From: Candidatus Sericytochromatia bacterium
Lineage (GTDB): Bacteria > Cyanobacteriota > Sericytochromatia > S15B-MN24 > JAQBPE01
Assembly (NCBI GenBank): GCA_040400605.1
Contig: JBBAPZ010000015.1
Location: forward strand, 1 to 64,000
Reading direction: 5' to 3'
DNA length: 64,000 nt
Both the position numbers and the translations under genes were made by a program. Each line of letters opens with the position of its first letter. Position 1 is the first letter of the stretch. Below the pieces are notes generated by a model. That model was not told the origin of the DNA. It did not search any database and saw only the letters and a list, made by a program, of their open reading frames with translations. This document shows positions 16,204 through 28,480 of the stretch, piece after piece.

Positions 16204-18021
16204 ATGGCGAGTGTGATGCAGTCTGAAGCCAAGCCGCGTTGGGATCTGACGCGTCTATACGCCGGTCCCGCCGATCCGTTTTTGGTGGGGGATCGCGAGC
16301 GGGCGCGGGAATTGGTGCGTAGCTTCGTGGAACGCTACCGCAACCAGGTCAGCACGTTGGACAGTGTGGCATTGTCACAGGCCCTGGATGAGATGGAAAC
16401 GCCTGTGGCCTTGCTGGATCGTCTGGCGGGATATACCTGGCTGCTGTTTTACACAGATACACGGGATGAGGCTGCGCGGGCCTTGTATCAAGACGTTTGG
16501 GCCGAGTACACGATGCTCAAGACCGAACTGGATCATTTTAAGACCGAGCTCAAATACCTGTCTATCGAGGCGATGACCCAACACCTTGAGGCACCGGTGC
16601 TTGAGCGCTATCGCTACTGGCTGACACGCATTTTTGACTCGGCGCCGTATGCGCGGCCCAGCAATGAAGAGCGAATTTTGGCCAATCGAACCATCACGGG
16701 AGTGAATGCGTGGTGTCAACTTTTGACGGAAAGTCTGGCACGCTTGCGCCTGACGGTGATGGTGGATGGGCAACCCCATACGGTGAGTGTGTCAGAAGCC
16801 CGGGGCTACCGGAGTGATTTGAACCGCGCCATCCGCGACGAGGCGCATCAACGGATCCTGGCGGCCTTCGCGGGTGAAAGTCACTTGCTGACTTACATTT
16901 TCAACACCTTGATGCAAGAGTATCTGGATGAACTCTCGATTCGCAACATGACGGATTTGTTGACGCCGCGGTTACTCGAATACGATCTCAGCCGGGCGGC
17001 GGTGGATTCGTTGTTGCAGACAACCCGCAAGCATTATGGCCTGAGTGGTCGTTATTATCGGAGCAAGGCCCGCTTGCTCGGCATCGCGGAATTTGGGGTG
17101 TGCGATTTGGTTGCGCCACCGTCGATTCACCATAGTCAGGTGTCGTTCAATACGGCACGGGTTTTGGTGCAAGAGTCGTTGCGGCAATTTTCACCCGAGT
17201 TTGCCGACATGGCGGAACGGTTTTTTGCGGAAGCGTACATTGATGCGTTTCCGGCGCCTGGCAAACCGTCGGGTTCGATCGCGTTTGGCTTGGGGCCAAC
17301 GGTACACCCTTATTTATTCCTGAACTATACATCGTCCGTGCGTGACGTGGTGTTGCTGGCGCACGAGTTGGGACACGGGTTGCACTTTTTGATGGCGGCC
17401 AGGAAGCAGGGCGTGCTGAACGCCTACAGCACGTCACCCATGTTGGAAACGGTGTCCATTTTTACAGAGATGCTGACGGCGGAGCATTTGTTGACGTTGG
17501 AGCCTGATCCCCACGTGCGCATCCATGTGTTGGCTGCCCAGATTGAAAATGCGTTGCTCAATGTGATGCGCCAGACGATGTACACCGAATGGGAGCTTGC
17601 CGTTTACACCAAGCGTCAGGCGGGTTTTGTGAGTGCGGCGGAGCTCAACGGTTGTTGGCTTGATGCACACAAGGCGCTGTATGGTGATTCGGTTCAGGTA
17701 ACGGAGGCTGACGGTTGGGGTTGGCTGAACAATCCTTATTTTTTCACCACCCGCTTCGGCAATTTCAGTTATGCGTTTGGCCAATTGTTGGTTTTGAGTC
17801 TGTTCACGCAATTTAAGCGGCAGGGCAAGGATTTTGTGAATCGCTTCATGGATATGCTGGAGCAGGGGGGATCGGAATCCCCTGCGCACTTGCTGGCGCG
17901 CATCGGCATTGATATCGAGAACCCGCAGTGTTGGGAAAAAGGCTTCGTTGTGTTGGAAGAGCTCATCGAAGAATTTGAGCGCGCCGTGGATGAATTGACG
18001 CCCGAGGCGGGGTCTACCTGA
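16204..18021 (+). CDS. pepF: M3B oligoendopeptidase F-like peptidase
   Basis: WDLTRLY N-terminus, IDAFPAPGK, LAHELGHGLH (HExxH), FSYAFG. Start uncertain. Confidence 0.85.
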   Translation: MASVMQSEAKPRWDLTRLYAGPADPFLVGDRERARELVRSFVERYRNQVSTLDSVALSQALDEMETPVALLDRLAGYTWLLFYTDTRDEAARALYQDVWAEYTMLKTELDHFKTELKYLSIEAMTQHLEAPVLERYRYWLTRIFDSAPYARPSNEERILANRTITGVNAWCQLLTESLARLRLTVMVDGQPHTVSVSEARGYRSDLNRAIRDEAHQRILAAFAGESHLLTYIFNTLMQEYLDELSIRNMTDLLTPRLLEYDLSRAAVDSLLQTTRKHYGLSGRYYRSKARLLGIAEFGVCDLVAPPSIHHSQVSFNTARVLVQESLRQFSPEFADMAERFFAEAYIDAFPAPGKPSGSIAFGLGPTVHPYLFLNYTSSVRDVVLLAHELGHGLHFLMAARKQGVLNAYSTSPMLETVSIFTEMLTAEHLLTLEPDPHVRIHVLAAQIENALLNVMRQTMYTEWELAVYTKRQAGFVSAAELNGCWLDAHKALYGDSVQVTEADGWGWLNNPYFFTTRFGNFSYAFGQLLVLSLFTQFKRQGKDFVNRFMDMLEQGGSESPAHLLARIGIDIENPQCWEKGFVVLEELIEEFERAVDELTPEAGST

Positions 18022-18087
18022 CACCAACGGACGTCACGCGACCGGGCGATCGCTTCCGGGTTCGCCAAACCACCCACGCACACCGCA

Positions 18088-18888
18088 TCACCGCTTGCTG
18101 TTTTCGCCGGCCACTTGCAAAAAGCGGTGCATGTCTTTCATGTTTTGCTCGGCATACTGGTGGGTCATGCTCATCAAATTGGGTAACAACAAAAGCAACA
18201 AAATGAGTCCGGATACCGGCTTGGCGATGGTCACCAGGTCCTGGGTCAAGCTGCTCGCTTGCTGCGCCACTTTGCTCATGTAACCGACCCCCAATTCCGC
18301 CACAAACACAACGGTCACCATTGGCAAGGCCAGTTGAATCGTGATGGCTAAAAACGCACCGCTTGCCAGGATGACCTGCGCACCCACGGCAGGAGAGAGC
18401 ACAAAGCTACCGATGGGTACCAACGCGAAAGACTGGACGAAGCCGCCAATCAACCACAGATGCCCGCCAAACACCATAAAAATCAAAATGGCAATATTGA
18501 AATAAAACGTGCCCATCGCATTCACGTTCGTTTTGGTAAACGGGTTTTGCACGCTGGCTGAGGACAAACCGGCTTGGACACCGCCCAGTTCGCCCGCGGA
18601 TTGAATGGCCAGGAACATGATGTTTGCGGAATACCCAAGGATGAAGCCCAACGCCAATTCGGTCATCGCGACGATCACAAAACCAAGCAGTTGCTGCGGC
18701 AGTGCAGCCGTTGCCGGCATCTGCGTCATCGCAACCAGGCTGATGCCGGCAATGAGGCTCATCCGCACGGGCGCTGGTAAGTTACGATTGCTCAGTACCG
18801 GTGCCTGCATAAACAAACCAATGGCACGGGAGACAACCATGATGAAGGTAGGCACAGTCAGGGCCAGATACGCGACCAAGGCCTCCAT
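18088..18888 (-). CDS. fliR: Divergent FliR paralog (second export gate)
   Basis: Hydrophobic FliR pattern (P.LS.R..P..VR, ELALGFILG, AGELGG.Q.GL, GGHLWLI...SF..VP); TGATG coupling to the fliQ paralog. Confidence 0.85.
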   Translation of the reverse strand: MEALVAYLALTVPTFIMVVSRAIGLFMQAPVLSNRNLPAPVRMSLIAGISLVAMTQMPATAALPQQLLGFVIVAMTELALGFILGYSANIMFLAIQSAGELGGVQAGLSSASVQNPFTKTNVNAMGTFYFNIAILIFMVFGGHLWLIGGFVQSFALVPIGSFVLSPAVGAQVILASGAFLAITIQLALPMVTVVFVAELGVGYMSKVAQQASSLTQDLVTIAKPVSGLILLLLLLPNLMSMTHQYAEQNMKDMHRFLQVAGENSKR

Positions 18889-19157
18889 CACGGCACCATG
18901 GCAGGTATCTGCCCAAACAGGCGTGTGACGTAGCCTACGACCGTGTTCAACATCCACGGTGCCACGAGCACGAGCACGAGCAAAACGGCGATCGCCTTGG
19001 GCACGAACGACAAGGTCTGTTCCTGAATCGAGGTGATCGTCTGCAACAGCGCGACAATAAAACCGACCACCAAACCTGTCAATAACATCGGTGCTGACAA
19101 AAGCAGCACCAGGATGATTCCCTGGGTCAGGACAGTCAAGACAAATCCGGTGGTCAA
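18888..19157 (-). CDS. fliQ: FliQ paralog
   Basis: LLQTITSIQEQTLSFVPK motif, 89 aa. Confidence 0.92.
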   Translation of the reverse strand: MTTGFVLTVLTQGIILVLLLSAPMLLTGLVVGFIVALLQTITSIQEQTLSFVPKAIAVLLVLVLVAPWMLNTVVGYVTRLFGQIPAMVP

Positions 19158-19172
19158 GGCCGCCCCCTCAGG

Positions 19173-19955
19173 TCATCGATAACTGCGCACCAACGCTTCA
19201 ATCAGCAAGTGCCACCCATTGGCCAAGGAAAAAATCAGCACCTTGAACGGTGGCGCCAACGATTGGGTCTGCAGTTGTTGCATGCCAAGGGCCATGATGA
19301 CGTTGGTGATGACGAGGTCCACGACAATAAAGGGCAAGTAGACGATGAAGCCGATTTTAAAACCCGTCGCGACCTCGCTGATCATGAAAGCGGGCACCAC
19401 CACGTGCATCGGGACATCTTCCGGCTTGCGTGGATCCGGCAACTTCGCCAACCGCAAAAAAAACGCCAGTTCCTGCTGGTTCGTTTGCTTGATCATGAAA
19501 TTCTTGAGCGGCACTTGGGCCTTCTCGTACGCCATTTCCTGCGTCATCTTGTTGTTCAAAAAAGGCACAATGGCATCCCGGTTGACCGCATCCCAGGTAG
19601 GCGCCATGACGTACATGCTCAAAAACAAGGCCATGCCGATGATCACCTGACCAGGGGGAACGTTTTGCAAACCCGTCGCCTGTTTCAGAAAAGCCAACAC
19701 CACTACAATACGAATAAATGGCGTGGTGGCAATGAAAAGGAAAGGCAGCAAAGTCAGGGCTGCGACCAGAAAAATTAATTGCAACGGCGTGGACAAACCA
19801 GGCGATTGCAGAGGCGCTCGGAGATCAAAGCTGCTCATCACCGTGGCGGCGTCCGCGGCACGCGTGGCGCACCAAGCTTCAGAAGGCCACAAACACACCG
19901 TCAGGAGTGCCAGGGCAAACAAGCCGACGCTCAAAACCCGGTTATGCTTCGTCAC
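19173..19955 (-). CDS. fliP: Divergent FliP paralog with MQQ in place of the MMM gate
   Basis: FIRIVVVLAFLKQATG.QNVPP.QV, PAFMISE, FKIGF.VYLPFIVVDLV, PFK...NGW. Confidence 0.9.
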   Translation of the reverse strand: MTKHNRVLSVGLFALALLTVCLWPSEAWCATRAADAATVMSSFDLRAPLQSPGLSTPLQLIFLVAALTLLPFLFIATTPFIRIVVVLAFLKQATGLQNVPPGQVIIGMALFLSMYVMAPTWDAVNRDAIVPFLNNKMTQEMAYEKAQVPLKNFMIKQTNQQELAFFLRLAKLPDPRKPEDVPMHVVVPAFMISEVATGFKIGFIVYLPFIVVDLVITNVIMALGMQQLQTQSLAPPFKVLIFSLANGWHLLIEALVRSYR

Positions 19956-20343
19956 TGACGTCCTGCTCCTTGACCAGATGCTCAGAAAACGTGCCCAAGA
20001 CGTCTTCGGGCTGCAACTCCGCCACCGGCGTCAGGCGATCGCCCGCACTCGCCAACAGCCAATAACGCCCCCCGACACGAACCACCATCAAGGCACGGGT
20101 GGCATCCAGCGCGTGACGATCCACCACCTGAATAACCGGACGCTCCCGGCCCCGCAACAGCAAACCGGGAATGCGCTCACGCCAATAACGCGCACCAAAA
20201 AACCCCAACACCGCAACCACCGCCGTCACCACAACCAGTTGCAGCAAATACGGCCAGATACTGACATCAATGGGGGCCGGCCCCAGTGGCATCATCGACG
20301 GCCAAGGTGTCGGCGTGGCCCAGGCAATCAACTCAGGCGCCAC
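19942..20343 (-). CDS. fliO: FliO-like protein (paralog)
   Basis: One TM helix followed by the beta-rich IQVVDRHAL...LMVVRVGGRYWLL; sits between fliN and fliP; AAGGAG SD before GTG at 20343. Confidence 0.7.
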   Translation of the reverse strand: MAPELIAWATPTPWPSMMPLGPAPIDVSIWPYLLQLVVVTAVVAVLGFFGARYWRERIPGLLLRGRERPVIQVVDRHALDATRALMVVRVGGRYWLLASAGDRLTPVAELQPEDVLGTFSEHLVKEQDVSDEA

Positions 20344-20662
20344 CCGTCGCTCCTTGCAGGGCACTGTTGAAAATCTGTGTGATCTTGACCCCAAAGGAAG
20401 AACCAATCACCACGACTTCGCCTTGGGCGACAATCTGTCCCGCGACACTGAGGTTGACCGGCTCACCGGCGAGTTGTTCCAGTTCAATGATCGACCCCTC
20501 ACCCAATTGGATGACCTGCCGCAACGGAATCGACGTCCGCCCCAGCTCAACCATGACTTCCAACTTAAGCTCACGCAGAATCTCAAGATTCGGCTCATGC
20601 GACACCGCGCCACCCGAAAGCGGCGCAAAACGCACCTGGGATACCACCTGACGCTGAGTCAA
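20333..20662 (-). CDS. fliN: FliN-like SpoA-domain protein (paralog)
   Basis: VELGRT, LGEGSIIEL, LAGEPV, GEVVVI..FGVKIT; AGGAGG SD before TTG. Confidence 0.9.
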   Translation of the reverse strand: MTQRQVVSQVRFAPLSGGAVSHEPNLEILRELKLEVMVELGRTSIPLRQVIQLGEGSIIELEQLAGEPVNLSVAGQIVAQGEVVVIGSSFGVKITQIFNSALQGATGGA

Positions 20663-20705
20663 CGCTCAAACCTCCTGATTCCTGAAAATCCCCAACGATG
20701 CACCA

Positions 20706-22145
20706 CTAACCCGGATTGACCCTGAGCAGCTTCTCAACACCCGGTTTCAACGATATCATCTTCACAGCTTTGTTGCCGTTAATGGTCAAGGGACGACCAC
20801 GGCCAGCCAACCGACCGTTAATGGATACCCCAATCGTGCCATCCGGCGATTTGGGCAATTCCAAAATTACCCCTTCCGCCAGGGTCAACCAATCCGCGGC
20901 GCTCAATTCCAGGCGTCCGAGATCCGCCACAATCTGCACATAGACATTGCTGAGCGGCCCCATCGCAGACGGCGCATCATCGTCCGCGGCCACCGCCTCA
21001 CGTGCCGAAATGACATTCGCCGTCTCAGGCTCCGTACCACCACCCGGACGATTCACCAAGGGCATTTCATAGCGCTCAACCGTCCAATCAGGCAAACGCA
21101 ATAACGACTGACATTCCAGCTCAAACTGCTTCAAGATGCGCTGCGTTTCAGCCTCCACGCGCACGGGATCAAAGCCATGCAAGGGCGCGGGCTCAATGGC
21201 CGGTATCTGCACCTCGATGGGCCGCGTGAACTCCGCCGCCTTGGGGTCAGACACACGCGCCGTAAAATCAACCCGACCAAGAATCAATCCAAATGCCCCG
21301 GACAACATGCACGCCGAGGAAAACGCATACGAAAACGCCACATTGGGATGACTCGCCGCCCCAAAGGTGTAAATCCAGTGCAAAATCACCGCAGGCGTCG
21401 CCACCGACACACTCGGAAACAGCGTCCGCAACAAGACAATCAAGGCTGCACCAAAGAAAAACCCCATCGCGCCGCCATAATAAAACCCGACAGCCCCCCG
21501 TACCAACCGGGCTGACAACCCCACGCCCACGTGCTCATCGCGCGGATCCGGCACCTCAGGCCGCAAAAACCCCAACACCAAACCCAAAAAACCAAACGGA
21601 ATCGCGTATCCCAACGCCCCCCAAAGCGCCCCATACATAAACGGCGGGTTCACCAACCAGCGCTGACGCTTGATATCCAACGGCTTGCGCGGCGGCACCT
21701 GCACAGGCGTCAACAAACCCGGAGACAAAGCCGTACCAACGACCTTCGCCATCGTCGAAATCACTCGCCCGCGCTCAATCGCAGGCCCCGGCGACAAACT
21801 CAAACCCAAACCGTGCGCGTGCGCCAACATATTGTAAGCACCCACACCCAACAAGCTAACCATCGTCAACACCAATAAAAACCCGCGCAACAAGCCGGCT
21901 GGTTGCGTCAAAGGCGGACTCAAGACGATGCTGCGCGGCTTGTAACGCCGGTAATACGTGAAATAATTGAGCGCCACCAGTAAGCTGACCGCATGCGCCA
22001 ACGTGTATCCCACCAGAAACGGATGCAAACCCGTGCCACTCGACGTCCAGAAGCGCACCAACATGAACAGCGGAAAAATTCCACCAACCAAAAACAGAAT
22101 CGTCCAAAAAAAGGAAACCTGCTGCGCAGGCGCGCGCGCAATCAC
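20706..22145 (-). CDS. Polytopic membrane protein with a C-terminal FliM/FliN (SpoA) domain
   Basis: About 6-7 hydrophobic segments in the first ~290 aa; last ~75 aa (VQIVADLGRLEL...L.EGVILEL...INGRLAGRG...AVKMI) follow the SpoA pattern. Confidence 0.7.
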   Translation of the reverse strand: MIARAPAQQVSFFWTILFLVGGIFPLFMLVRFWTSSGTGLHPFLVGYTLAHAVSLLVALNYFTYYRRYKPRSIVLSPPLTQPAGLLRGFLLVLTMVSLLGVGAYNMLAHAHGLGLSLSPGPAIERGRVISTMAKVVGTALSPGLLTPVQVPPRKPLDIKRQRWLVNPPFMYGALWGALGYAIPFGFLGLVLGFLRPEVPDPRDEHVGVGLSARLVRGAVGFYYGGAMGFFFGAALIVLLRTLFPSVSVATPAVILHWIYTFGAASHPNVAFSYAFSSACMLSGAFGLILGRVDFTARVSDPKAAEFTRPIEVQIPAIEPAPLHGFDPVRVEAETQRILKQFELECQSLLRLPDWTVERYEMPLVNRPGGGTEPETANVISAREAVAADDDAPSAMGPLSNVYVQIVADLGRLELSAADWLTLAEGVILELPKSPDGTIGVSINGRLAGRGRPLTINGNKAVKMISLKPGVEKLLRVNPG

Positions 22146-23053
22146 GATGACACCTGCGCAATCTCAACCGCCAACCGACGACCATCCGGCGTGGTACCCG
22201 GCTTGCCCGCCATACGCGATTGCCCCACAATCACCTCCAGGGTGCCGCCAACCAAGGTATCCAACTCAATCACATCGCCCGCTTCCAATCCGTGCAAGTC
22301 ACTAACCGTTAACTCGACACGCCCCAAACACACCGTCACCGGCACAGGCACATCCTGGATAAAATCCAGGCGTTCGTGAAAATACGTGGTATCCGAACCC
22401 GTCAAGGTGGTCTCGCCGATCGCCTGCAAACTCGCACCCGCACTCAACAAATATGCCTGCGGAATCGCCAGCACCACCCGCGCCGTCTCCGTCTGCCCAG
22501 GCTGCGACACCCGAAACGCCGTCGTCACCACTGGCGTATTCGGATTCAGACCCGGAAACATCTGTTGCAACTCAGTCAAAGTCGGCGGAACCTGCGCCGG
22601 TATCATCTGGACATCAAACTGCGCGATTTCATGCCAACACACCATAAACTGATGCCCCAAGTGCATCAACCACTGCTCAACAAACGCAAAACCGTCATCC
22701 GTCGCCAACGCCTCAACATTCACCCCGGTCAAAATGCTCGCCGCCGCGCTGTCGACAAACACAAAACCACCCCCAGGCTGCTCCGCAAAATCCAAAATTC
22801 CCCACACCGCATCGCGCGCATAACGCGTCTCCAACGCCTGAAACGGAACAATCTCAACCGCGGTCACCTGCCATGCGGTCTGCGGAAAACTCACATACTC
22901 ATCCTGCAACTGGGCCATCTGCGCACACAAGTTGAAGTGAATATAGTAAATGGCGCGCATTTCCAGATTGTAATGATTGACACCAGCCGTCAGGACCGCC
23001 TCGTCCTCGGCGCTGACCCCATAAGACCCTTCCGAGTGTTGATAACCCTGCAC
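22142..23053 (-). CDS. FliM-like protein (FliM middle-domain-like plus SpoA) lacking the N-terminal CheY-binding motif
   Basis: C-terminal VPVPVTVCLGRVELTVSDL..LEAGDVIEL...GKPG...LAVEI; AGGAGG SD before GTG at 23053. Confidence 0.7.
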   Translation of the reverse strand: MQGYQHSEGSYGVSAEDEAVLTAGVNHYNLEMRAIYYIHFNLCAQMAQLQDEYVSFPQTAWQVTAVEIVPFQALETRYARDAVWGILDFAEQPGGGFVFVDSAAASILTGVNVEALATDDGFAFVEQWLMHLGHQFMVCWHEIAQFDVQMIPAQVPPTLTELQQMFPGLNPNTPVVTTAFRVSQPGQTETARVVLAIPQAYLLSAGASLQAIGETTLTGSDTTYFHERLDFIQDVPVPVTVCLGRVELTVSDLHGLEAGDVIELDTLVGGTLEVIVGQSRMAGKPGTTPDGRRLAVEIAQVSS

Positions 23054-23499
23054 GCACGTGCCTCCTACGGAAGCGTTCCCTCCCGTCTTCAAATGATACC
23101 AAAAAGCGCCACAGTCGCCCATTCAACCTAGCTCACGGACGGACCACAAACCGATTGATACTCGGCTGTGGACCGTGATGCGGCAGCGCCCGGCGCAAAC
23201 AGTGCTGCACAGGTTAAGAGCCAAAACCTGCACGGCAAATGCAAAACCAAGCTTTGGGAGCCTGCCGTTCTTCAAATGCCAGTCAAAATACCACTCACCG
23301 TTCAATGCCTGTTCGCCCCTTGAAACGCCCTGGTGACACGCCGGTGGTTTGAAAGTGGTCGACACATCCAATCACCTGACCGATGGGTGTTTGTTTTGCC
23401 TGTCACAGATGCTTGTTCGGTTAGGGGTTATGCTGCATGGGTATGATCGCGCTTGGTTCAGGCGACGGGCCTGATGCGGCGTCATAGGGGGCGAATGTC

Positions 23500-23919
23500 A
23501 TGAATGCGATTTCGCAAGGGCGTTACGGCCTGATGGGACTGATTCCAGAGGTACCAACATCGCTGCGTAGCGGCACGCTGGATGCCAATCGTCCCGAGGA
23601 GGAATTCATCAAGTTGATGGTGGCCCAACTGCAGAATCAAGACCCCGAAAAACCCATGGACGGCACCGCCCTCATATCGCAAGTCACGCAGATGAATGCG
23701 GCGATCGCCGTGCAGCGCATGAGCTACCTGACCACCGAAAACCACGCCGTTTCAACCGCCGCCGCCCTCCTGGGCAAACAGGTGCTGATTCGCCAGCCAG
23801 ATAACGGGGCCACGCTCACCGGTCGTGTTCAAACCGTTGACTACTCCGGCAAAAACCCCCTCATTGTGGTCGATGGCCAGTCTTTCCCGCTTAACGCCGT
23901 GTTGCGCGTAGACGTGTAG
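23500..23919 (+). CDS. flgD: FlgD-like hook cap paralog
   Basis: EEFIKLMVAQLQNQDPEKPMD motif, LLGKQV, short Tudor-like C-terminus. Confidence 0.85.
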   Translation: MNAISQGRYGLMGLIPEVPTSLRSGTLDANRPEEEFIKLMVAQLQNQDPEKPMDGTALISQVTQMNAAIAVQRMSYLTTENHAVSTAAALLGKQVLIRQPDNGATLTGRVQTVDYSGKNPLIVVDGQSFPLNAVLRVDV

Positions 23920-23930
23920 GAGGGCAAGTC

Positions 23931-24947
23931 ATGTCGCAAGTTCAAAATGGCGTCTTCAATACGTTAAGCGCCATGGACCAATGGATGCGGGTCATTGGCT
24001 CCAATGTCACCGGTTCGACCGTCACCGGCTATCGCGGAACCGATGTGCAATTCGGGGATGTGTTGGCGTCCCACCTCTCCCTCGGCGCACGTCCAAGCGA
24101 TGGCTACGGATCCGTCAATCCCGTCCAACGCTCCGATTCAGGCGTCCGCATCAAAGCGACCACAACCGATTTTACCCAAGGCTCCATCACAGCCAACGGC
24201 CAACCCACGAACCTTGCCATCAACGGCGACGGTTTCTTCGTTCTGTCACGCACACCCAACCCGCGGTCAATCAGCGACCTTAGCTTCACCCGCGACGGCA
24301 CCTTCAAATTCGAATTTCTCCGTGGCGACCTACCCAATACCGGCACCTACCGCCTTGTCAACTCAGACGGGCTGTTCGTCATGGGTTACTCCTCCACCGT
24401 CGATGCCAACCGACCCTTCGGCACACCACCGGAAGAAGCGCAAGGCACAGACAACCAGGCTTTTGCCAACGTCGTGGGCAGCGGCGCCGGGCAACCCCCC
24501 ATCCCCGCTTTGTTCCAGAACATTCAACTGGATCTGGTGCGCAATCCGGAAGCAGCCGGCCGCTTCACGTTTGATGCCCAAGGCCTCGTGCGCGTCGGTG
24601 GCGCCGAACCCCGCGATGTCCTCGGACGCCCCGTCAACATGCACGTTGCATTGGCCAAATTTGCCAACCCGGAAGGCTTGAGACGCGGCAGCAGCGGCGC
24701 CTCGTTTCAGTATGACGTGATTGCCGGACAAGTGTTTTCAGGCACGGCCGCTGCGGGCAATGACGGCAGAAACCGGGTGGTCGGCGCAACCAACGTGCTT
24801 ACCCCGGGTGCCCTGGAGAATTCCAACACGTCCATCAACACGACGTTGCCCGAAATCACGCTCGCGCAGAAGTCCTTCTCGTCGGCGAGCAAACTGCTCA
24901 CCGTCGCCAACGACCTCATCGAGAAGGTGGAACAGATCATCAAATAA
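23931..24947 (+). CDS. Divergent FlgE/FlgG-like axial (hook/rod) protein
   Basis: DFTQGSI, LAINGDGFF, FTRDGTF, LVNSDG..VMG, FANPEGL, GALENSN; N- and C-terminal D0 motifs are degenerate. Confidence 0.85.
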   Translation: MSQVQNGVFNTLSAMDQWMRVIGSNVTGSTVTGYRGTDVQFGDVLASHLSLGARPSDGYGSVNPVQRSDSGVRIKATTTDFTQGSITANGQPTNLAINGDGFFVLSRTPNPRSISDLSFTRDGTFKFEFLRGDLPNTGTYRLVNSDGLFVMGYSSTVDANRPFGTPPEEAQGTDNQAFANVVGSGAGQPPIPALFQNIQLDLVRNPEAAGRFTFDAQGLVRVGGAEPRDVLGRPVNMHVALAKFANPEGLRRGSSGASFQYDVIAGQVFSGTAAAGNDGRNRVVGATNVLTPGALENSNTSINTTLPEITLAQKSFSSASKLLTVANDLIEKVEQIIK

Positions 24948-25351
24948 ATGACCTCGCCTGACCGCGATACCGTGACGCACAGGTTTTTGGTCAAAACGGC
25001 ATGACAAACTCCAAACATCGGGCACTGCTTCGTCGTTTTTGAGCAACAGCCACAATTCGATCACCAATCTAACGCGTCTCGATCTATCGCGTGGGCCAGC
25101 ACCCCGAACTCCAATCCATCAAATTGACTGATTCTTCGTTCAATGTTCGTTGTAACCACACTGCCCAGAACACCCGAAACCGGTCCGCTTGCCGTTACCG
25201 CTTGGGCTGATGGTTGGCGCCTGATCGGTGAAGTTGATGAATCCTCCTGAACTCCCGAAACTTGACAGGCTCAGTCCTTCCGTGCTCATCTAAAATTTCA
25301 GACGTTTGTTATCAGCGATCGCACACTGGTGCGTGAGGCACTGCGCGTTCC

Positions 25352-27454: not shown

Positions 27455-28480
27455 TTATCCGAACCAGCCGCCGAACATCGGGAAGTCGTGGGATTCTTTC
27501 AAGAGGGTGAGCAAGCGTGGGAAGCCGTGGCGATCCACATACCCCTTGACCTTGCGAAAACCAGCACCATAGGCGGGGTCAGGGTCTTTCATCAAGGCAT
27601 CGATGTGATAACGCCCCTCTTCGTTATCGCGCGCCAGGTACATCCGGTAACTCATGTAATTGCAAGCCCCTTCCTCGAGTGCAAAGGCATGGGGGCGCGC
27701 ATGATAATAATTCCAGGCGTGCATCAGTTCATGCGCGGCAGTCGCCTCGAGTACGGCGAGTGGCATGCCACCAAGCAAATACATGGTGCCTTGTTTGTTT
27801 TGACGGGTGGTGCCCTGCTGTTCGAAGACCATTTGCCACAGACCGCTCACCCATTTGGAGGGCTGGTGGGCGGAGCGGCGCAACAGTTGGTTCAATTGAT
27901 TGCGGTCCACCACCTTGAGCGGAATGTCAACGCGTCCGAGATCCACGCCCCACTGCCCAAACCGCGCCCGCACCTCCATCAACAAACGCCGCACATCCGC
28001 TTCTCTGTGCACCGCCGTGCGATGACAGCCCCGACAAATCACGCGACCATCCGGATAGTTAAGACCACCCCCACCGATGCTGGCATGCGTGAGGCGGGCA
28101 CAATACTGGCACGTGCCGAATTCCCGCGCGTGGGCCGCGTGGTAGGTGTTGCCCCAATAATCCGTCAACGCCGGGCCAACGATGCCCTTGGCGCAGACCA
28201 CACACTGAAGGGCTGCGGTCTGCTCATAACAGCGCGGATGATGCGCGCGGCCTTCGTGGATTACCGCCTGCCCGGTGATCGCCTGCGCACAGACCGGACA
28301 CCGCGGCGCGTGATGCTCGGCATAACAGGCCGGATGCAAAAATCGCCCAGCATGCACCTGATAACTGCCCTGAATCGGTAACTGACAGGCGTGACACAAA
28401 AAATGACCCGGATGGAAACAAAGCCGCCCGGCTTGAATGTAACGCCCCTCAATCACCGCTTTGCAATGCGCGCAGCGCAT
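27455..28480 (-). CDS. LIM zinc-finger / DA1-like zinc metallopeptidase
   Basis: Repeated CxxC...HxxH/C zinc-finger units in the N-half; AHELMH...EEG.CN...Y..GF DA1-type peptidase motif in the C-half. Confidence 0.8.
   Translation of the reverse strand: MRCAHCKAVIEGRYIQAGRLCFHPGHFLCHACQLPIQGSYQVHAGRFLHPACYAEHHAPRCPVCAQAITGQAVIHEGRAHHPRCYEQTAALQCVVCAKGIVGPALTDYWGNTYHAAHAREFGTCQYCARLTHASIGGGGLNYPDGRVICRGCHRTAVHREADVRRLLMEVRARFGQWGVDLGRVDIPLKVVDRNQLNQLLRRSAHQPSKWVSGLWQMVFEQQGTTRQNKQGTMYLLGGMPLAVLEATAAHELMHAWNYYHARPHAFALEEGACNYMSYRMYLARDNEEGRYHIDALMKDPDPAYGAGFRKVKGYVDRHGFPRLLTLLKESHDFPMFGGWFG

Follow-up and report, generated by a model that had tools for sequence, protein, structure and literature searches.

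A predicted polytopic membrane protein carrying a SpoA domain marks a second flagellum-derived gene set in the Sericytochromatia

To our knowledge, the SpoA proteins of known systems are soluble and hang from FliG or from SctK/SctD. A sequence-only reading of a 64,000-nucleotide stretch of DNA (the whole of which we call the window) from the Sericytochromatia, an uncultured class of nonphotosynthetic relatives of the cyanobacteria, proposed that one of its genes fuses a polytopic membrane protein to a SpoA domain. If a SpoA domain is part of a polytopic membrane protein, a sorting platform could be attached in a manner not previously seen. The locus therefore raises three questions: whether the fusion is real, which machine its product serves, and what the membrane domain does there.

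An intact fusion gene between fliM- and fliN-type genes

The fusion gene, here called X, is a single open reading frame on the minus strand (20706 to 22145) that encodes a 479-amino-acid (aa) protein with a membrane domain, a linker, and a SpoA domain. The surrounding sequence from 18000 to 25000 of the window is free of N. As the sequence-only reading had noted, X lies between fliM-like and fliN genes and overlaps the former by 4 bases, the GTG start of X sharing the sequence GTGA with the fliM-like stop (22142 to 22145). The upstream gene, fliM2 (22142 to 23122, minus strand; the true start is probably downstream of 23122), encodes a FliM homolog with a middle domain and a SpoA domain, without the EIDAL motif and without the GXXG loop. 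Downstream, fliN2 (20333 to 20662, minus strand) begins 43 bases after X and encodes a short FliN with an intact GEVVV strand. The minus strand further carries fliO2 (19942 to 20328, start uncertain), fliP2 (19173 to 19955, a second export-gate FliP), fliQ2 (18888 to 19157), and fliR2 (18088 to 18957, start uncertain). On the plus strand lie flgD2 (23500 to 23919), the hook cap gene of the second system, and flgE2 (23931 to 24947), which encodes a divergent hook-type protein of that system.

Gene order around X was conserved. fliM2 adjoined X upstream in 17 of 17 fetched loci, some of which may share genomes with the 47-genome class search described below, and fliN2 adjoined it downstream in 16 of 17, the remaining contig ending inside X. 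The order fliM2-X-fliN2 was found in all five loci of two distant families, f6 and f7. In relatives, flgD2 lies upstream of fliM2 on the same strand; here the block from fliM2 to fliR2 is inverted with respect to flgD2-flgE2 (18088 to 24947), and the two are codirectional in 16/16 related loci showing flgD2. At loci L012, L014, L015, L018, L065, L069, and L071, the fliP2 frame is 390 to 445 aa long and is not accompanied by a visible fliO2 frame, so that several families may have FliO fused to FliP.

X was detected in 45 of 47 Sericytochromatia genomes, in 43 as one whole stop-free frame and in 2 split over contig ends, and the SpoA domain was present in 39/39 homologs from the first search. 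These results rule out the possibility, raised as a doubt beforehand, that a sequencing error joined two genes; a sequencing artifact was rejected as the source of X. X was absent from G020 (64% complete) and from G031 (82% complete, with no SpoA match whatever) and present in all 23 class genomes with a completeness of 90% or higher and a contamination of 5% or lower. All of the genomes are incomplete assemblies, and kin among them are not independent. Where named, the source organisms of those 39 homologs were Sericytochromatia or labelled cyanobacteria. A search of 354 other genomes from the phylum sample did not recover the membrane part of X; among the matches listed from these genomes, coverage comprised the linker and SpoA end only (profile position 299 onward; best E = 1e-15). 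With its presence in 45/47 class genomes and its membrane part not found in the 354 others, X is a good marker of its module, as had been suggested.

Architecture of X

The membrane domain (residues 13 to 289; 21279 to 22109, minus strand) is predicted by AlphaFold2 models and hydropathy to contain six long hydrophobic helices, at approximately residues 13 to 35, 42 to 66, 82 to 109, 175 to 193, 216 to 242, and 267 to 289 (mean hydropathy, 1.3 to 1.9 across 61 aligned rows). The AlphaFold2 model of whole X had a pLDDT of 73.6, and that of the membrane part alone had a pLDDT of 90 and a pTM of 0.89. Where six to seven Gly-rich helices had been proposed, six are thus predicted, with invariant glycines, and two short extra helices appear in place of a seventh. 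Helix 5 carries a glycine zipper (G220, G224, and G228 in 61/61 rows; G232 in 58/61). The invariant residues of X are mostly packing glycines, this zipper included, together with R195, E197, and W419; on the side predicted to face inward, the conserved residues R195, E197, and R216 lie together. Unlike ion-conducting stator subunits, which have a conserved acidic residue inside their helices, X shows no conserved Asp or Glu inside its helices across the 61 rows.

If the SpoA domain of X is cytoplasmic, six helices would place both termini inside. The short loops obey the positive-inside rule under this predicted topology (Lys plus Arg, 2.8 and 3.3 inside and 0.2 and 0.9 outside). Helices 3 and 4 are joined by a long loop of 55 to 192 aa, predicted to face outward, which has a Lys-plus-Arg value of 8.4 and does not bear on that rule. 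Longer forms of X (551 to 693 aa) have an acidic N terminus and a larger loop 3-4 and align over the same helices. The linker (residues 290 to 397; 20955 to 21278, minus strand; predicted to be cytoplasmic) is acidic and proline rich as first described, with 18 Asp/Glu and 11 Pro per 100 residues at 296 to 395, and also contains a conserved helix at 327 to 349, where F341 is present in 59/61 rows.

The membrane domain gave no clear match to a described family in these searches. At E = 0.1, no Pfam family matched the N-terminal domain in more than 1 of 32 members. Structural searches with the whole model returned SpoA matches only, in Foldseek (best E = 0.024) and in VIA (best Z = 4.9) alike. 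With the membrane domain alone, Foldseek found nothing at E = 0.001, and the best VIA hit among 48,161 chains (Z = 5.0; rmsd, 7.7 over 123 residues) is a weak match, from which a new fold does not follow. A sequence search of the PDB with the X family profile recovered only SpoA chains below E = 0.01, and the ESM Atlas gave no usable match for residues 1 to 350, from which neither absence nor novelty follows. No convincing stand-alone membrane domain was detected by profile search, in which 38 of the 40 matches (proteins of 147 to 772 aa) carried SpoA; the two others look truncated, one being labelled partial and ending inside SpoA and the other ending after helix 5. On these searches, the membrane domain is apparently undescribed and a target for structure determination.

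The SpoA domain (residues 398 to 464; 20754 to 20954, minus strand) is the sole Pfam match of X, to FliMN_C (PF01052; E = 2e-12, 47.3 bits versus a cutoff of 23.8). With this match, one 479-aa frame, and six predicted helices, the proposed fusion of a polytopic membrane protein to a SpoA domain holds. By profile, the domain is closest to FliN; X scored 30.7 bits against the NCBIfam FliN model TIGR02480, under its cutoff of 84.05, and at 479 aa with six predicted membrane helices it is not a short soluble FliN. The GEVVV strand, which in FliN is the dock for FliH, occurred in 0/61 X rows and in 7/7 FliN2 rows examined. X had no Pfam match to CheC, CheX, or FliM, and its N-terminal region is a hydrophobic helical bundle, so that it is not a FliY either. 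By this analysis, X resembles a third C-ring SpoA subunit yet fits neither FliN nor FliY. FliY/FliN is the third SpoA protein of the C-ring in Campylobacter, Helicobacter, and Leptospira (PMC6946799). Like FliY as described there, X adds a third SpoA protein to FliM and FliN, is encoded right after fliM, and has an N-terminal domain placed on a FliN-type SpoA domain. In contrast to the soluble, CheC-like N terminus of FliY, that of X is a predicted six-helix membrane domain with no Pfam family, and X has no GEVVV strand.

A second flagellum-derived gene set and its retention without flagellin

The genome from which the window derives (G000, family f1) encodes an ordinary flagellar set comprising fliF, fliG, fliM, fliY, motAB, flhA, and flagellins. 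A second set is dispersed over several contigs: the X operon with fliO2, fliP2, fliQ2, and fliR2 together with flgD2 and flgE2 in the window; flgF-G-A-H-I-J, fliA2, flgB-C, fliE2, fliF2, flhA2, fliK2, and fliJ2 on contig C2; flhB2 on C5; and fliH2-fliI2 on C9. In this genome, the second set provides second copies of each component of the export gate (FliP/Q/R, FlhA, and FlhB) and of the ATPase complex (FliH/I/J), with the rod (FlgB/C/F/G), FliE, the hook (FlgE/D), and the L and P rings. The export ATPase was found in 47/47 class genomes.

This set has its own FliF. The fliF2 gene (C2:33741-35585) encodes a 614-aa protein in which YscJ_FliF and YscJ_FliF_C are followed by the FliG middle domain FliG_M (Pfam E = 1.3e-9) and which ends before the torque domain. 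FliF2 proteins are approximately 600 to 665 aa long, with both ring domains present. The FliF2-FliG_M fusion formed one frame in 43/47 genomes, was split over two contigs in 1, and was truncated or not found in 3; FliG_M was conserved in 30/30 retrieved FliF2 tails. The only FliG_C in this genome belongs to the cluster of the ordinary flagellum, and a second full-length FliG was not found in the genome.

The second set is of flagellar rather than injectisome type in its core components, which scored higher on flagellar than on injectisome models (FlhA, 746.5 bits versus 578.8 for SctV; FliI, 608.5 versus 584.6 for SctN; FliF, 217.4 versus 82.9 for SctJ). FlhA2 had 86 relatives at 53% identity or above, followed by a gap down to 47%. 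In a quick unrooted tree without injectisome rows, FlhA2 (n = 15 rows) formed one group apart from FlhA1 (SH-aLRT = 99), and FlhA1 grouped with rows of other phyla. The genes for FlgB, FlgC, and FliE, flagellum-specific proteins whose absence is given as an injectisome criterion by Abby and Rocha (PMC3459982), lay directly upstream of fliF2 in 7/7 loci examined. Judged by its gene content, the second system appears to be neither a motile flagellum nor an injectisome. A single flgI per genome (44/47) lies within the second-system cluster and may be shared by both machines; L and P rings are then either common to the two or missing from the ordinary flagellum.

Other genes of note were observed near these clusters or elsewhere in the genome. 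A divergent flagellin-like gene adjoins flhA2 (L023:6492-7484, equivalent to G000 C2:30491-31483), with close orthologs in f1 only (8/8), some of them in tandem. Three stand-alone FlhA cytoplasmic domains without a membrane part are encoded at G000 C1:237894-239684, C1:143556-144905, and C7:52642-53745 (L027-L029), and similar ones occur in f6. In the window, a protein with LIM and DA1-like Pfam domains, a pairing familiar from plants, is encoded at 27455 to 28480 (minus strand) and is conserved beside flhA1 in four related loci.

Family f6 separates the two gene sets. Among its six genomes, which include G033 (93% complete in 3 contigs), FliG_C was found in 0/6, flagellin in 0/6 (0/4 by Pfam), and FlgK over its cutoff in 0/4. 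X (5/6), FliF2 (5/6), the export ATPase (6/6), FlhB (5/5 tested), FlgD (4/4), and FlgI (5/6) were nevertheless kept, and FliF2 was the only FliF found. The gaps hit different genes in different genomes, the pattern expected from incomplete assembly. Because f6 keeps X and the second set without flagellin or the FliG torque domain, the machine that X serves is the second one, not the flagellum used for swimming. The six genomes are kin, so this amounts to roughly one loss event. X is also a marker for a second machine of flagellar descent, which almost the whole of a class neighboring the cyanobacteria has kept, even where swimming was lost.

Hook-like proteins are numerous in some of these genomes. 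G033 encodes six dispersed hook-like paralogs besides FlgE2 (242 to 622 aa, with conserved ends and variable middles). With one of them as a query, each of the 20 f5-f7 genomes gave 3 to 14 matches, and the 27 f1-f4 genomes gave none at E = 1e-12; a profile detected one hook-like paralog in G000. Dispersed FlgE-type paralogs are expanded in flagellin-less genomes (L166, L168-L172, and L174), are in tandem in G029, and have a G000 representative at C17:42761-43570 (L026:6762-7571). The paralogs could be subunits of a flagellin-free filament.

Proposed role of X and alternative readings

In known motors, the GXXG loop of FliM meets the EHPQR loop of FliG and the C-terminal helix of FliG meets the stator (PMC7355467); the roles of the joint and CheY-site motifs are also described in PMC6946799. 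Profile comparison identifies FliM2 as a genuine homolog of FliM (hhalign probability, 98.6), but GXXG was present in 0/16 FliM2 rows and the CheY-binding EIDAL motif in 0/16, and the EHP motif was present in 0/30 FliF2 tails. With GXXG and EHP missing on both sides, the usual FliG-FliM joint is changed or lost, and with EIDAL and the torque domain missing, the second machine would operate without chemotaxis input or a torque helix.

We favor, with moderate confidence, a model in which X joins the switch ring as its third subunit and ties the export-sorting platform to the inner membrane, in a second machine that derives from the flagellum and probably does not rotate. The loss of the FliG-FliM joint motifs on both sides is what leads us to infer an anchoring role. 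In this model, the SpoA domain of X would pair with those of FliM2 and FliN2, as in known C-rings; FliN2, which keeps GEVVV, would dock the FliH2-FliI2 ATPase, and X, which lacks it, would not. The membrane domain would supply or reinforce the anchor, packing through its glycine zipper on itself or on another membrane subunit. The subunits exported across the L and P rings may then be of rod and hook type and form a short structure on the cell surface or a conduit for secretion, rather than a propeller. Of the direct membrane tether originally proposed, a membrane-bound SpoA protein is borne out; the tether is likely, as the best reading of binding steps that are all inferred. A complex prediction for X (residues 5 to 475) with FliF2 (residues 430 to 614) scored 0.00 and was uninformative for or against pairing.

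Several observations count against parts of this model. FliF2 keeps a well-conserved FliG_M, so FliM2 may dock there through a changed surface, leaving a second anchor unneeded. A MotA/MotB-type pair persists in 5/6 f6 genomes and the bushing rings are retained, both of which a rotating machine would also require; the single flgI is perhaps shared with the swimming flagellum; and f1, this genome included, has the divergent flagellin-like gene beside flhA2. Loop 3-4 of X could act as a sensor.

These points bear on the other functions that X might have. It could be the rotor-side coupling of an unusual motor, in which a divergent MotA/MotB pushes a membrane ring of X, in place of the missing FliG torque domain, and turns a filament of hook-type subunits. 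This genome has a second MotA/MotB-type pair (C3:86254-88014), and 5/6 f6 genomes have a long-tailed MotA; all 14 of the ordinary MotA rows sampled contain the RREGLLALE-type motif, which neither the 17 long-tailed rows nor the second MotA of this genome has. The retained L and P rings and the hook-like paralogs of G033 would also suit a motor. The second stator genes, however, do not adjoin second-system genes in the fetched loci, the MotA tree does not join the second MotA of this genome to the long-tailed group, and FliM2 lacks the CheY site. G029 (98% complete in 650 contigs), moreover, keeps X, FliF2, FlhA2, FliI2, and FlhB yet yielded no long-tailed MotA with the query used, and we judge a motor function of X unlikely. 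X might instead act mainly as a sensor or gatekeeper, whose outer loop and membrane domain respond to something outside (cell contact, for example, or the state of the envelope) and turn export on or off through SpoA. The variable length and predicted outward orientation of loop 3-4, the cluster of R195, E197, and R216 on the inner face, and the loss of the usual CheY input from FliM2 are consistent with such a role, but conservation of the outer loop is poor, with low-complexity sequence in the long forms, and the prevalence of packing glycines among the invariant residues also makes sensing an improbable main function.

Two readings fare worse. The reading of X as an accessory of the ordinary swimming flagellum, in the manner of a FliY-like third switch protein, has in its favor that the X operon of this window is embedded in the main region of flagellar genes and that it follows flhA1 in 4/17 loci. 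The ordinary flagellum already has its own FliM and FliY, however, and the presence of X in five of the six f6 genomes, which have neither FliG_C nor flagellin, largely refutes this very unlikely reading. The strong form of the sequence-only reading held that the module is without FliF or FliG and that X substitutes for both. Neither gene lies in the X operon, and the genome has no second full FliG; even so, the proposed replacement is refuted for FliF by the dedicated one-frame FliF2-FliG_M, which supplies the only FliF in f6, and we give the strong form almost no credence. At most, X compensates for the missing N- and C-terminal domains of FliG and the altered FliG-FliM joint. A bolder and doubtful extension of the anchoring model is that the Sericytochromatia encode a third kind of type III machine, distinct from both flagellum and injectisome, in which a membrane ring of X with a new fold replaces the FliG link to the C-ring and a flagellin-free filament of variable hook-derived subunits is possibly turned by a rewired MotA/MotB acting on X.

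Further rotor- and stator-type genes were seen in the class. A MotA/MotB-type pair without the charged rotor-contact motif is encoded at L077:6044-8107 and G000 C3:86254-88014 (L031) and is present in genomes without the FliG torque domain; in f5-f7, the MotA of this divergent pair is extended by a tail of some 100 aa. Families f2 and f4 encode a protein of approximately 650 to 720 aa in which FliG middle and C-terminal domains follow an extended N-terminal region that includes a hydrophobic segment (L084:6680-8839 and L085:5688-7652), and in several of these genomes a third MotA lies within 3 kb of it. The two may form a possible third rotor-stator module, which was not found in this genome or in f6.

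Parts of the second machine have parallels in known systems. The Chlamydiaceae, which are presumed to be nonflagellated, have a FliF that carries only the middle domain of FliG (Bergeron 2016, PMC4768692). This is the architecture of FliF2, with FliG_M at the C terminus; the chlamydial protein, however, is approximately 330 aa long and lacks much of the periplasmic part, whereas FliF2, at nearly twice that length and with both ring domains, occurs with rod, hook, ring, and X genes. Flagellar export without a filament is described for Buchnera basal bodies (PMC8109811) and the Lysobacter FT3SS (PMC7688988), where basal body and export apparatus are kept without a functional filament and export of proteins is thought or shown to occur. 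In those cases the genes are the organism's remaining flagellar genes, whereas here a separate second set with a new membrane subunit stands beside an ordinary flagellum in most of the class. The secretin-less type III secretion system (T3SS) of the Myxococcales, like the second system, is flagellum derived, vertically inherited across a taxon, without motility parts, and of undefined function; in contrast to that system, which lacks FlgBCDE, FliE, and FlgH (Abby and Rocha 2012, PMC3459982), the Sericytochromatia system keeps all of these, and its core scores higher on flagellar than on injectisome models. The second machine would be a living intermediate between a flagellum and a secretion or surface-contact device, for which Abby and Rocha (PMC3459982) had the Myxococcales as their only example. 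Partial flagellar sets in the sister group have been read as decay or motility loss (PMC4040986, PMC5877343, and PMC4451040) and may deserve reexamination, in particular those of PMC4040986. In a literature search of mostly open-access main texts, we found no report of a SpoA protein fused to a membrane domain, none of a second flagellar system in the Sericytochromatia, and none naming the class together with FliN.

A different reduced export system, one without X, was observed in family f9, where 169/170 genomes had a FliF match, many through a divergent copy only. In seven of the eight fetched loci of f9, f27, and f41 (L150-L162), the gene order was fliE, fliF, an unknown gene (320 to 355 aa, no NCBIfam match), fliH, and flhA; elsewhere in these families, a SpoA protein of approximately 400 aa is encoded upstream of a fliO-like gene and fliP.
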